64,000 bases of DNA from Candidatus Binatia bacterium (GTDB taxonomy: Bacteria; Desulfobacterota; Binatia; Bin18): positions 64,001 through 128,000 of the forward strand of contig CAXXHG010000024.1 of NCBI GenBank assembly GCA_963666315.2. The letters are read 5' to 3'. The position numbers and the translations under genes were made by a program. Positions within the stretch are counted from its first letter, which is position 1, and every line of letters begins with the position of its first letter. The notes under the pieces were generated by a model. It did not search any database. It was not told the origin of the DNA and was given only the letters and a program-made list of their open reading frames with translations. Positions 49,046 to 53,805 of the stretch are shown here, piece by piece.

Positions 49046-49325
49046 CGGGCGAGGGCGTAGCGAAACGAGGGGACACCGTTTCCCGTTATGGATTTGCCCA
49101 ATTCATCGGGACTCGCCCCCCTTCCAAAACAGGAGTATGCGATATAAGACCGGCCACATGGAGGGGTGGCCGAGTGGTCGATGGCGCCGGTCTTGAAAAT
49201 CGAAATTCGCTATTTCGGCAAGCCGCCGTTATTGTTGCTAAATGTTTGATTAGACAGGGGAAACACGGCGTATCTCTCTCTTCATAGTCCTCCCCAGTCC
49301 TCTCCATTCCCCCCGAATCCCCGTG

Positions 49326-49497: not shown

Positions 49498-50016
49498 CTA
49501 CGGTTGACGGACCTGCCATTCCCCGGCGAGTCGTTGCGCCTCCGCCACCTGCTGCGGCGTCATCTTTTCCTCAACAATGGATCTATTGCGAGCGGCTTGT
49601 TCGTGCGTTTCTCCGGTGGAGTTTGCCGCGGCCAGGTTGACCCACTTGTGTGCCTGGACGTAATTCTGCGCAACCCCTTGGCCGGTGAAGTACATGACGC
49701 CCAGACTGTACTGCGCGTTGGCATCGCCTTGGTCGGCGGCCTTGCGGTACCAGACCACCGCTTGTTTGTAATCCTGCACAACCCCTCGGCCTTTATGGTA
49801 CATGACCCCCAGATTGAACTGGGACCAGGTCTCGCCTTGGTCGGCGGCCTTGCGGTACCAGACCACCGCTTGTTTGTAATCCTGCACAACCCCTCGGCCG
49901 TTGCCGTACATGAAGCCCAGACTGACCTGCGCTTCGGCGTCGCCTTGGTCGGCTCGTGCCCGGAGCGCAGCGATGTCGTCCGCGTGGGCGTCCGGGTTAC
50001 AGTGGAGGGCAGTCAC
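49498..50016 (-). CDS. Sel1-like repeat protein (signal peptide apparently frameshifted)
   Basis: ADQGDAEAQVSLGFMY.NGRGVVQDYKQAVVWYRKAA repeats; near-identical 108 bp DNA units. Confidence 0.9.
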   Translation of the reverse strand: MTALHCNPDAHADDIAALRARADQGDAEAQVSLGFMYGNGRGVVQDYKQAVVWYRKAADQGETWSQFNLGVMYHKGRGVVQDYKQAVVWYRKAADQGDANAQYSLGVMYFTGQGVAQNYVQAHKWVNLAAANSTGETHEQAARNRSIVEEKMTPQQVAEAQRLAGEWQVRQP

Positions 50017-50417: not shown

Positions 50418-50858
50418 TCAGCGTTGAATCGCTTCGATACGAGCCGCCCGCTGCTCCAGTATTGCGGCTTCCCGATCCCGTTTCATGGCTCGATAAAGGA
50501 AGGCCAGGTTGTTCAGGGTGTTAGCCACATCGGGATGGTCGGGCCCCAGCGCCTGCTCCCTTATCGCCAGCGCCCGCTTGTAGAGCGGCTCGGCCAGCGT
50601 GTACTGGCCTTGGGTTCGGTAGAGGAACGCTAGGTTGTTCAGGACCGTCGCCACAGTAGGATGGTTTGGGTCGACGTTTTTCTCGGCAATTTCAAGGGCT
50701 TTTTTTGCAACTATGACGGCACGGCCATATTGGCCCTTATCATACAGGTCCACAGCCTCCTGATTCAGGATGCCCCATTCACTGCCTGCCTCACTGGGCA
50801 AAACCGGCAGCGGCCACAACAGCAACAACACCGTGATGATGGTCGGGAGGTATTTCAC
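50418..50858 (-). CDS. Secreted TPR protein (kinesin-light-chain-like TPR_12)
   Basis: Signal peptide, then HPTVATVLNNLAFLYRTQGQY..AEPLYKRALAIREQALGPDHPDVA. Confidence 0.9.
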   Translation of the reverse strand: MKYLPTIITVLLLLWPLPVLPSEAGSEWGILNQEAVDLYDKGQYGRAVIVAKKALEIAEKNVDPNHPTVATVLNNLAFLYRTQGQYTLAEPLYKRALAIREQALGPDHPDVANTLNNLAFLYRAMKRDREAAILEQRAARIEAIQR

Positions 50859-51185
50859 GGGTCCTTCCTAGCAGAACGGGATCGAGATCGGCAAGAGAAA
50901 ACAGTCAGTGAAAGCCAGCACCGGGCGGCCAGCGGACGCCAAGTGTCGCCTGCACGGGTCGCATTGCGTCCAGGGAAGGTCTTTCCAGGTCCTTGTCTAA
51001 CCAAACTCTGAACGGCACCCAGGTATTCAAAGCCAAGCATTTGATTAACGCACGGAATACTACGATCCCGCGTGGGGCAAATATCACGTTCCATTTACAA
51101 ACAGCGCGTCTAGAAGCAGGGTTTTCCGCACAGGGGGCATTCAGGATGGACAACTCCCCTACAGACTGTCCGTAGGGAGAAGATT

Positions 51186-52016
51186 ATGTGGATTGTCGGC
51201 GTAGCTTTGTTACTTGTGGCATCACCCGCGTTTGCGCAACTCGATCTCGATAGCAATGGGAAAGTCGGCATAGGCATCACCGGCCCCAACGCCCGACTTC
51301 ATGTAGTGCACCACGGCGATACGGCGACCTTACGCCTCGCATCAAGTGGCCTCTATTTGACCATGGTGGAGTTTCAGAATACCTCCAATAATACCTGGTT
51401 TCGGATGCGGGCCGACGGCAGTGCGAGTGCGTTTGCGGGCTCGTGGTTGATGGAGAATGTCACCACCGGCGTCTACGTCATGCGGATCAAGCCGGATGCG
51501 AGCGTAGTCTTTGCTGGTAGCGTCTCGGCGCAGTCATTCGTCCAGACCTCCAGTCGCACCCAGAGGACGGCGATCACGCCGGTCGAGGGCAACGTCGGTG
51601 GGATCTCGGAGCTGGTTGACGTGCTGAACACCGTTGAGCACCGAACGGAAGAGGCGATATTGACCGGCCTGGAGGGAGAAGACGCAGAGTTGGCCGAGCA
51701 GGTGCGCGCCGAGATGTTCACGTTCGAGGATCCGCAAACGGTGGATGACCAGAGTCTGCAAGCGTTAGCGCGGGAGATTGACCGGGACCAGTGGGCTGCG
51801 GCCCTGCGGACGGCAAGTACGGGGTTGAAGGACACGCTCTTCCGGAATATGTCCGAGCGCGCCACGGAGCTGCTGAAAGATGACATGGACGCGGTTGGTC
51901 CCGTGCGGCGCAGCGTGGTAGAGGCCGCCCAGAAAGCCATTTTGGAGACGGCGACGGCACTCGAAGAGGCAGGGACCATCCAGCTCCGCAACCGTACCAA
52001 TGACAGCTTGGTGTAG
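51186..52016 (+). CDS. Chimera: signal peptide + tail-fibre-like beta region + FliG C-terminal domain
   Basis: ASPAFA|Q leader; GKVGIGITGPNARLHV; then GG...LN...E..IL..L...DAELAEQVRAEMFTFED...NMSERA..LLKDDM..GPVR..VEAAQ.I...LEEAG.I; GGGAG RBS. Confidence 0.85.
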   Translation: MWIVGVALLLVASPAFAQLDLDSNGKVGIGITGPNARLHVVHHGDTATLRLASSGLYLTMVEFQNTSNNTWFRMRADGSASAFAGSWLMENVTTGVYVMRIKPDASVVFAGSVSAQSFVQTSSRTQRTAITPVEGNVGGISELVDVLNTVEHRTEEAILTGLEGEDAELAEQVRAEMFTFEDPQTVDDQSLQALAREIDRDQWAAALRTASTGLKDTLFRNMSERATELLKDDMDAVGPVRRSVVEAAQKAILETATALEEAGTIQLRNRTNDSLV

Positions 52017-52102
52017 GGGTGCACCGCGACGAGGCGGCGAGTTTCGCTACCGCTGGGGCTCAGAGGGTTGGTAAACGCCGGAGTATTCGATATCACCACC
52101 GT

Positions 52103-52447
52103 ATGTCCAAGCAACGGCTGGCGACAATCTTGCCCCCAAAGCGCCTGACCGGACAGCAGCTACTGTGGGCGGCGGTACTAGATAATGCTGTTCAGAGTCT
52201 TGAACAGCGCGGTATTTACAACTACGGAAGAGGCAACATACGGGGCCAGAAGCGGACCCTGAGGAACGAGTCGCTGACCTGGTTACGGTCAGACCTCACC
52301 GCACCCGGCAGTTTCATATTTATCTGTGACACATTGGGCATTGATCCTGACTTCCTGCGCGAGCGACTGCTGAAGAAATATGCCGTGGGATCCGGGATTG
52401 CTGAGGCGGAAGGAAGGTTACGCCGATTCCGCGCCACTTTATCGTGA
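52103..52447 (+). CDS. Phage-type hypothetical helical protein
   Basis: LLWAAVLDNAV...WLRSD....GSFIFICDTLGIDPDFLRERL. Confidence 0.6.
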   Translation: MSKQRLATILPPKRLTGQQLLWAAVLDNAVQSLEQRGIYNYGRGNIRGQKRTLRNESLTWLRSDLTAPGSFIFICDTLGIDPDFLRERLLKKYAVGSGIAEAEGRLRRFRATLS

Positions 52448-52601
52448 CGCCCAGGGTATCCTCACCGGCCAGGTAGATCGGCACGGGTTGGGCCCTTGGA
52501 TTGTCGCACAACGAAGGAAGAAAGACACCCTATCGAACGATCAGATCCAGCGATTGGACGCGCTTGGCTTTACCTGGGATGCGAGAAAGAAAGCAGATTA
52601 G
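52400..52601 (+). pseudogene. Helicase-associated (HA) domain fragment
   Basis: LGPWIVAQRRKKDTLSNDQIQRLDALGFTWD; no proper start codon. Confidence 0.7.
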
Positions 52602-52758
52602 ATGACAAGTCACAGCGACCGTCGGCCTCGGGTTCTACGCTTTGTTGGTCGGTCCACTGGGGGCGCACGACGGGATCGGCGCCTTTTTTTGGGGGGGGGG
52701 GGGGGGGTGCTCCTGGCGGTGAGTTTGAGGGGTATCGTCGTACGCGTTGATTCCAGCG

Positions 52759-53013
52759 TCACAAACGCGGCTGTTGCTGCGCCTCCACCAGCCGCTGTTC
52801 CAGGCGGCGCGGAAGATATTTAGATAAATAGCGGCTTTTGCCCGTGTAACGTGGATGGTCCGGCCCGACGAGACTCGCTCCACCGTGGAACTTGCAAGTT
52901 CGCTTGCCAATCGTGGCAGCGCGCCCACATTGCTTCCTCCTCTGCTTCGACAACGCTTGGCAGCGATGGTGTTCGTCATACGGCTCAAACGAGTTGCGGT
53001 CTTGATCTTCCAT
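52759..53013 (-). CDS. HGGxSTG-like zinc-binding phage protein (small-terminase-associated), probably truncated
   Basis: RCQALSKQRRKQCGRAATIGKRTCKFHGGAS; AAAGGA RBS. Confidence 0.7.
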   Translation of the reverse strand: MEDQDRNSFEPYDEHHRCQALSKQRRKQCGRAATIGKRTCKFHGGASLVGPDHPRYTGKSRYLSKYLPRRLEQRLVEAQQQPRL

Positions 53014-53049
53014 GGGGCACCGTCCTTTCACGGAGTACGCACACCATGA

Positions 53050-53574
53050 TTGCACACTTTTCTGTGTGCAGGGGGGGAGACAGGCAACCGACGAGTGCTG
53101 GCACTCACCGCTTGTTTTCTCTTGCGGCCAAAGCTAAAGCCGTGCGAGAATGCGACGGCTCGGTCAGTGCCGATGACAAAGACGTTGGAAGACTTATTGC
53201 GCCCACGAGTATCGGACTCCTTGCGAAACAACTCTACGCGGTTGTTCTTGAATCAGCGCGGGCAACCCTATATATCGTGTCACAGGGCTTTTAATCGCGC
53301 TGCTAAGCAGGCAGACATTCACGACTTACACTTTCATGACCTACGCCATACTTTCGCGAGCCGCATGGTGATGTCAGGCGCGGACATCCGAACAGTGCAG
53401 GAGTTAATGGGGCACAAGACCATAAGCATGACGTTACGCTACGCGCATTTGTCCGCCGGCCATAAACAGCGTGCGATGGATACGATGGACGGAGAGTTTT
53501 CCAAGAAAAGTCCCGCGATTTCTCACAACACGGCCCATTCAGAGTACTTGCCTAAAATCCTAAAAGCTGTGTAA
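53050..53574 (+). pseudogene. Tyrosine integrase C-terminal remnant
   Basis: RSVPMT, LHFHDLRHTFASRMV..GADIRTVQELMGHKTISMTLRYAHL; the N-terminal half is missing. Confidence 0.9.
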
Positions 53575-53586
53575 TATCACAGACAT

Positions 53587-53674
53587 GGAGGGGTGGCCGA
53601 GTGGTCGATGGCGCCGGTCTTGAAAATCGGTAGAGTCTTATAGGCTCTCGTGGGTTCGAATCCCACCCCCTCCG
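53587..53674 (+). tRNA. tRNA-Ser (anticodon UGA), CCA not encoded
   Basis: GGAGGGG/CCCCTCC acceptor stem with G discriminator, CCGGT-CTTGAAA-ATCGG anticodon arm, long variable arm, GTGGG-TTCGAAT-CCCAC T arm. Confidence 0.95.
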
Positions 53675-53805
53675 TTGGCCTGCTTACCCGTTTTCACCTG
53701 CCTTCGAAAATGGCCGTCCTCATGTTGTACTTGCCGCATCACGCTGTAGAAATTCTTGTGAGAACGTCCTGTCAGTGAGGGAAGGCGGCGGCGCGAGAGA
53801 CTTCT

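Follow-up and report, generated by a model that had tools for sequence, protein, structure and literature searches.

FliG_C, the C-terminal domain of FliG, is normally a cytoplasmic rotor domain, and the two preceding domains bind other rotor proteins: the N domain binds FliF, and the M domain binds FliM. The protein is represented by the TIGR00207 model, by structures of T. maritima FliG-MC (PDB 1lkv, 3ajc and 4fhr) and by C ring structures (8umd and 8umx). It also occurs as part of fusion proteins, namely FliF–FliG fusions, both natural (P0274, 611 aa, PF01514 plus FliG) and engineered (PDB 8z4d). A second set of known proteins that bears on the present locus comprises GxVGIGT-repeat fibre proteins with a Peptidase_S74 (PF13884) end. 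In the parts of the literature that were available, neither a tail-fibre–FliG fusion nor an orphan FliG family was found. The chimera described here has features of both sets. Its residues 135–276 align end to end with FliG, and where FliG has its N and M domains the chimera has a signal-like peptide and a beta-rich repeat; its residues 18–120 match one repeat unit of the fibre proteins. The fibre proteins carry many units, whereas the chimera has one, with FliG_C as its C-terminal module.

The window analysed is a stretch of 64,000 nucleotides from a Candidatus Binatia bacterium (assembly GCA_963666315.2, contig CAXXHG010000024.1), and coordinates without a contig name refer to it (Table 1). 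An earlier note on this DNA had described a single intact ORF with a ribosome-binding site and a set of motifs, and had read it as a chimera in which a tail-fibre-type N half runs on, in frame, into the C domain of FliG. Both statements were borne out: the ORF encodes 276 amino acids, GGGAG lies at 51175–51179, 6 nt 5' of the ATG, every quoted motif was found (MFTFEDP, NMSERA and GPVR..VEAAQ in the FliG half), and profile matches were obtained on both sides of the junction. The chimera is a real gene-level ORF, an in-frame fusion of a tail-fibre-type N half and FliG_C. Its N-terminus, MWIVGVALLLVASPAFA followed by Q, has a mean Kyte–Doolittle value of 2.17 over residues 2–17 and ends in A-F-A; as read from composition, residues 1–17 show an h-region and the A-F-A end before Q, with a K/R count of zero. 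The GxVGIG motif is carried by GKVGIGITGPNARLHV (residues 25–40, 51258–51305), and residues 118–133 read FVQTSSRTQRTAITPV. GC3 changes across the junction, from 0.70 in the N half to 0.78 in the C half. An internal GTG with a GGAG ahead of it could be read from the sequence at codon 146. Promoter and terminator consensus scans of the + strand near the ORF gave no match, an outcome that is uninformative for this organism.

Table 1. Features of the chimeric locus and its surroundings in the window
Feature	Position	Strand	Remark
47-bp perfect direct repeat, left copy	49156..49202	+	copy of 5' part of tRNA-Ser
Shine–Dalgarno-like GGGAGAAG	51175..51182	+	6 nt spacing, GGAG to ATG
Chimeric ORF	51186..52016	+	276 aa plus stop, single uninterrupted frame
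Hydrophobic signal-peptide-like N-terminus, aa 1–17	51186..51236	+	ends A-F-A; lacks a basic n-region
One GxVGIGT..P...LHV tail-fibre-type repeat unit, aa 18–120	51237..51545	+	includes degenerate second-unit start, aa 104–120
Junction zone, aa 121–134, TSSRTQRTAITPVE	51546..51587	+	parent not confidently assignable; TPV common to FliG remnant P0002
FliG Gly-Gly linker (G138-G139), ARM_C and C-terminal helical domain, aa 135–276	51588..52013	+	
Stretch 84% DNA-identical to the C7 module (205-aa FliG remnant plus 114-aa ORF)	51636..52456	+	
Pfam FliG_C, aa 161–267	51666-51986	+	
114-aa ORF (MSKQRL...)	52103..52447	+	follows both FliG remnants in the host genome
Truncated tyrosine integrase ORF	53050..53574	+	Pfam profile positions 64–170 of 172 left
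47-bp perfect direct repeat, right copy	53583..53629	+	overlaps tRNA-Ser(tga) 53586–53675

Support for the junction, which the earlier note had wished to see as reads across about 51590, was obtained from Logan contigs of three public runs in two studies. These bridge the junction with 0 differences (X10, 50811–51719, and X11, 50718–51716, from one study; X12, 50811–51731, from another), at a depth of only 2–3 and with one run possibly being the window's own source sample. In X13, 51921–52687 was covered identically and 51004–51671 had no listed cover, an absence that carries no evidential weight. The low depth, the possible identity of one run with the source and the recurrence of the FliG_C part at 84% identity on another contig of the same genome (C7) could point to an assembly artefact, in which unrelated sequences were joined at a repeat. 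The separately assembled contigs nevertheless cross 51546–51636 without a difference, the reading frame continues through the join, and the sole repeat in the genome, that shared with C7, begins at 51636, 3' of the junction zone. Because independent assemblies cross the junction and the sole repeat begins downstream of it, misassembly is very unlikely, to the point of being almost negligible.

For the C half, Pfam FliG_C (PF01706) matched over profile positions 2–108 of 108 (E 2.8e-35, 121.3 bits against a cut-off of 23.3), and positions 196–329 of the 338 in TIGR00207 matched residues 135–268. The latter match scored 136.4 bits against a cut-off of 226.7, so that the equivalog cut-off was not reached, and FliG_N and FliG_M gave no match in the chimera. 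The T. maritima FliG structure 1lkv aligned to residues 135–269. By these three alignments, the retained piece starts at the Gly-Gly linker and keeps the whole of ARM_C and the C-terminal helical domain. On sequence grounds, the assignment of the C half to FliG_C is secure.

The condition of this half was then compared with that of intact FliGs. Among the columns at least 90% conserved in 104 full-length FliGs, the chimera keeps 21 of 23, and one of the two missed, L203W, is a family-wide change. Three class violations were counted, one of them private (L183P); among the 104 true FliGs, 6 have as many or more. Two private, non-conservative changes, L183P (in MFxFEDL) and L242R (in GPVRL), fall at sites invariant in eight family relatives. 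Since the split from the closest relative, P0002, the window lineage has acquired five derived changes and P0002 three (polarised against seven relatives), which indicates no clear acceleration on the window lineage. Between the window and C7 copies, FliG_C gave a dN/dS of 0.20 at a dS of 0.36; the domain was thus under purifying selection for most of the divergence of the two copies, a constraint that is not datable relative to the fusion and may predate all truncations. AF2 modelled residues 141 to 270 with pLDDT values of 78–96 in 10-residue blocks. The FliG_C part was clearly constrained over most of the paralogue divergence and is barely damaged, a state that fits a recent fusion and is also compatible with a function. 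The earlier note had named, among the outcomes that would count against its view, a singleton with a neutrally decaying FliG half, and had pointed to the MFTFEDP substitution: that substitution is indeed the private L183P, and the chimera is a singleton (see below), but on neutral decay the findings are mixed, with a dN/dS of 0.20 and 21 of 23 columns kept on one side and L183P on the other.

As suggested in the earlier note, the N half was examined with HMMER. A full scan of residues 1–140 against 1.84 billion representatives recovered the GxVGIGT repeat family as 6204 proteins at E<=0.001, of which the best 150 are mostly giants of about 1000–4850 aa with 5–31 matched stretches each. Unit-length alignments span residues 17–137, 18–127 and 20–122; together with the scan, they indicate that the N half consists of a signal-like peptide and one GxVGIGT..P...LHV unit. 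The motif G-x-V-G-I-G-T-x-x-P-x-x-x-L-x-V is present in it. BLASTP alignments placed a degenerate second-unit start at residues 104–120, and no tandem array of units was seen in the chimera, only the single unit and this degenerate second motif. PHROG tail-fibre families matched weakly (phrog_9942, E 2e-4). Among proteins of 151–483 aa, no close relative of residues 1–135 was found: of 569 candidates, the one that passed is 34% identical. The fold of the N half was modelled at low confidence (AF2 pLDDT 41–74, and below 60 in two AF2 jobs); in the first job, FliG N/M alignment rows probably misled the N-half model into helices.

Peptidase_S74 closes 2 of the 10 repeat-family relatives scanned, and the earlier note had claimed that an S74 chaperone was swapped for FliG-C at its cleavage junction. 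No S74 signal was found to bear this out. PF13884 gave nothing at E<=1 in the chimeric ORF, where at most about 10 residues of S74 could persist, too short a stretch to test, and no match in the whole host genome. Compared by eye over residues 100–150, SSRTQRTAITPV bears a weak likeness to the beginning of S74 in P0151 and P0156, and TPV..NVGG is common to the chimera and the FliG remnant P0002. Judged from the habits of the repeat family, a replacement at the cleavage junction may be called plausible.

Closer relatives of the N-terminus were found within the host genome itself. Residues 1–40 are 65% identical to 229-aa ORFs on C7 (C7:96064-96753) and C46 and to a broken 111-aa ORF. About 110 nt 5' of the chimera can be aligned with the DNA that precedes the 229-aa paralogue on C7. 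The chimera has in common with these secreted tail-fibre-like paralogues the upstream region, the signal-like peptide and the first GxVGIG motif. The paralogues part from it after residue 41, and their C-terminal approximately 90 aa, which belong to no Pfam family, are unrelated to FliG.

The same architecture was sought elsewhere, again following the earlier note. In 5.8 billion clusters, no protein with both halves was found; the 139 matches cover the FliG half only, with the exception of P0112, an ordinary full-length FliG that is 31% identical over 89% of the chimera query. Of 1382 candidates among longer proteins, a single one passed, a protein of the FliF–FliG type. In 60 related genomes, likewise, nothing matched both halves together. 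The chimeric protein (P0001) had 0 matches in 27 same-genus genomes, in which therefore no FliG-like sequence was found. The exact protein is recorded on only 3 contigs. The tail-fibre/FliG_C fusion is a singleton.

No flagellar genes lie near the chimera, as had been stated before, and the check was extended to the host genome (92.4% complete). Flagellin, FHIPEP (FlhA), FliM and FliG_M (PF00669, PF00771, PF02154 and PF14841) gave 0 matches each, and all four matched flagellated control genomes run as positive controls. No stator or rotor partner for FliG_C was found in the host genome.

The chimera lies between the two copies of the 47-bp direct repeat, in 4.4 kb that also hold Sel1 and TPR genes, the 114-aa ORF, a helicase-associated (HA)-domain fragment, an HGGxSTG-like ORF and the C-terminal part of an integrase. 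Many of these pieces are found again on other contigs at 70–96% identity. The truncated integrase, the HA-domain fragment and the direct repeats agree with the earlier description of the element as otherwise decayed. The 47-bp repeat copies the 5' part of tRNA-Ser(tga), and the integrase remnant is oriented towards the tRNA; with tRNA-targeting integrases, the direct repeat usually copies the 3' part of the tRNA. The Sel1-repeat gene has three tandem 108-nt units at 49660–49983(-), inside ORF 49498–50016, with 100, 83 and 69% identity to the reference copy, and fragments of the island Sel1 and TPR genes recur on at least 7 other contigs. A Cys/His-rich ORF of 98 aa at 52759–53055(-) matches HGGxSTG weakly (NF041373, E 7e-4, below cut-off) and is 91% DNA-identical to a copy on C37.

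A 38-nt inverted repeat, 79% complementary, was also seen at 50891–50928 and 53088–53125, enclosing the chimera, the 114-aa ORF and the HGGxSTG-like ORF. A 37-nt end of it is present on contigs C27 and C37 as well, and its right arm coincides with the point at which the integrase is cut. Such a repeat could delimit either an inserted element or an inversion. An invertible segment or shufflon (50929–53087), which this repeat and a resolvase fragment near the C7 FliG copy might suggest, was considered and rejected, the chimera junction being mid-segment and the breakpoints of the FliG family scattered.

These features bear on the reading in which the chimera is a functional exported protein, its Sec signal and fibre repeat delivering FliG_C to the periplasm or surface, where its ARM-like helices would serve as a new oligomerisation or binding module. 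The earlier note had raised this possibility as a new oligomerisation module or a decoy. Such a protein would be in keeping with the intact ORF, its ribosome-binding site and native 5' region, an N-terminus resembling that of paralogous secreted proteins, the confidently predicted FliG_C fold, and the frequent ending of repeat-family relatives in a separate C-terminal module, of which S74 is the example. We nevertheless consider it improbable: the architecture has no second example, the single repeat unit kept has no confident fold, the n-region of the putative signal bears no positive charge, FliG_C carries the private L183P and L242R, and the surrounding island is decayed.

The source of the FliG half was sought among its relatives. 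Exactly two FliG_C matches were obtained in the host genome, the chimera and a 205-aa ORF on C7 in which the FliG N-domain is joined directly to FliG_C. In this 205-aa 'mini-FliG' (C7:103716-104330(-), L002:1471-2088), the M domain and Gly-Gly linker are deleted and the N–C join is in frame. A resolvase fragment lies near it. Further forms were also found: a full-length FliG of 326 aa (P0005, 77% identity), a 207-aa remnant (P0003), a 156-aa form (P0002, 92% identity) that shares TPV..NVGG with the chimera and differs upstream of it, and a 75-aa remnant on a JGI contig (L021), which begins at about residue 191 and then frameshifts. Five distinct sequences, 92–99.5% alike, represent the 205-aa form: P0004, P0006, P0007, P0272 and, for the C7 copy, P0273. 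The breakpoint differs in each form of the family. Outside the remnant family, the nearest complete FliGs are 44–47% identical, whether sought globally or within two genera of the same family; a scan with P0005 against genome contigs returned only alphaproteobacterial FliGs at 30–31%, and a metagenome scan only two short remnants. By sequence relationship, the FliG half belongs to a mobile family of orphan FliG remnants, truncated in various ways, and was not taken from a working flagellar gene. The family flags orphan FliGs that persist in a lineage in which no flagellar genes were found, among them a mini-FliG of N and C domains whose length is constant.

The neighbourhood of the C7 copy (C7:88001-108000, L019) is phage-like or mobile, with an NrS-1-type primase-polymerase, a terminase small subunit, a subtilase and a zincin-like protease. 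It also holds intact and broken tail-fibre-like ORFs, HTH genes, the resolvase fragment and the 205-aa FliG remnant.

Both FliG remnants of the host genome are followed by the 114-aa ORF, for which a start at GTG 52019 was considered and rejected in favour of ATG 52103. Further copies lie at C7:103293-103634(-) and, broken and with no adjoining FliG, at C8:147328-147647. The window and C7 copies gave a dN/dS of 0.51. The family, of which a genome may hold as many as 9 matches, shares the core motif ..AVL.DA..C......EAE.W......PFSF..VC..LG.DP..LR and was present in 15 of 401 phylum genomes sampled, 14 of the 15 (host included) being from the same class. No match to the ORF was found in Pfam, NCBIfam, PHROGs or PADLOC. 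Its relatives elsewhere are placed among unrelated housekeeping genes: at seven loci in other genomes, none of 16 neighbour ORFs is a FliG, and 10 belong to other Pfam families. The varying neighbours and the lack of a family match argue that the 114-aa ORF is not a dedicated FliG partner. PADLOC returned 0 matches for the chimera, the 205-aa remnant, both 114-aa ORFs, the 98-aa ORF (as 97 aa) and the 229-aa paralogue.

In an alternative reading, mobile elements in non-flagellated hosts maintain the orphan FliG_C unit, alone or together with the 114-aa ORF, for a cytoplasmic function to which the fibre part is incidental. The working product could then be that of the full ORF, its signal peptide being non-functional, or could begin at an internal start, for instance the codon-146 GTG, and both the GGAG ahead of that codon and the missing basic n-region would suit it. 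So would the dN/dS values of both genes between the genome copies, the retention of the same pair by both copies, the identical 205-aa length in five distinct sequences and the largely intact conserved residues of FliG_C. Set against this are the different breakpoint of every form and the frameshift in one remnant, the broken third copy of the 114-aa ORF with no FliG alongside, the relatives of that ORF among housekeeping genes in other genomes, the lack of any PADLOC, Pfam or NCBIfam family behind such a system, and a selection signal that may be older than all truncations. We regard a maintained unit as unlikely. A bolder version, in which integrative elements of this non-flagellated marine lineage maintain FliG_C and a 114-aa partner under purifying selection and the present locus, having captured a secretion signal and one fibre unit, re-targets FliG_C to the envelope for extracytoplasmic re-use in binding or oligomerisation, is a long shot.

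We favour instead, as the probable account, that the chimera is a recent by-product of illegitimate recombination in a decaying island, and that it probably has no function. Illegitimate recombination or deletion would have struck inside the decaying integrated element and kept the 5' part of a gene for a tail-fibre-type secreted protein, with its native upstream region, ribosome-binding site, signal-like peptide and one repeat unit. An in-frame fusion would then have linked it to the 3' part of a relic fliG, which travels with the 114-aa ORF on mobile DNA in a non-flagellated lineage. The product, if made, would contain a complete FliG_C and neither the N nor the M domain. Because the FliF- and FliM-binding domains are absent and no partner was found in the genome, the chimera is most likely functionless or neutral. 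In this account, the anatomy, the reality of the junction, the paralogues, the remnant family, the singleton status and the lack of flagellar genes are shown by the data, and how the fusion arose, how recent it is and its want of a function are inferred.

Counted in favour of this by-product origin were the scattered breakpoints, the singleton status, the 4.4-kb decayed island, the lack of flagellar partners, the two private substitutions, the GC3 shift, one repeat unit as compared with 5–31, and an N half with no confident fold. Counted against it were the intact ORF, the good ribosome-binding site and native upstream region of the tail-fibre-like family, together with the conserved columns, the pLDDT of 78–96, the dN/dS of 0.20 and the absence of clear acceleration in FliG_C. 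Between a new machine and an accident of mobile-DNA decay, the chimera looks like a recent accident.

As read here, the locus is a clean example of decaying mobile DNA yielding new in-frame domain combinations, and the differently truncated sister copies document the process by which such combinations are made. A function in any orphan FliG or in the chimera would mean that the torque-generating domain had been put to an unusual new use, an idea that the evidence does not favour for the chimera. The domain combination is unique and is most probably a by-product of mobile-element decay. FliF–FliG fusions join cognate cytoplasmic or membrane rotor partners and retain every FliG domain; the chimera does neither. 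In non-flagellated bacteria with flagellar gene remnants, such as Lysobacter enzymogenes (PMC9927559), flagellar genes are retained in a lineage devoid of flagellar motility, as they are here. The present case differs in that a FliG fragment persists alone, on mobile DNA, in several truncations and one fusion.
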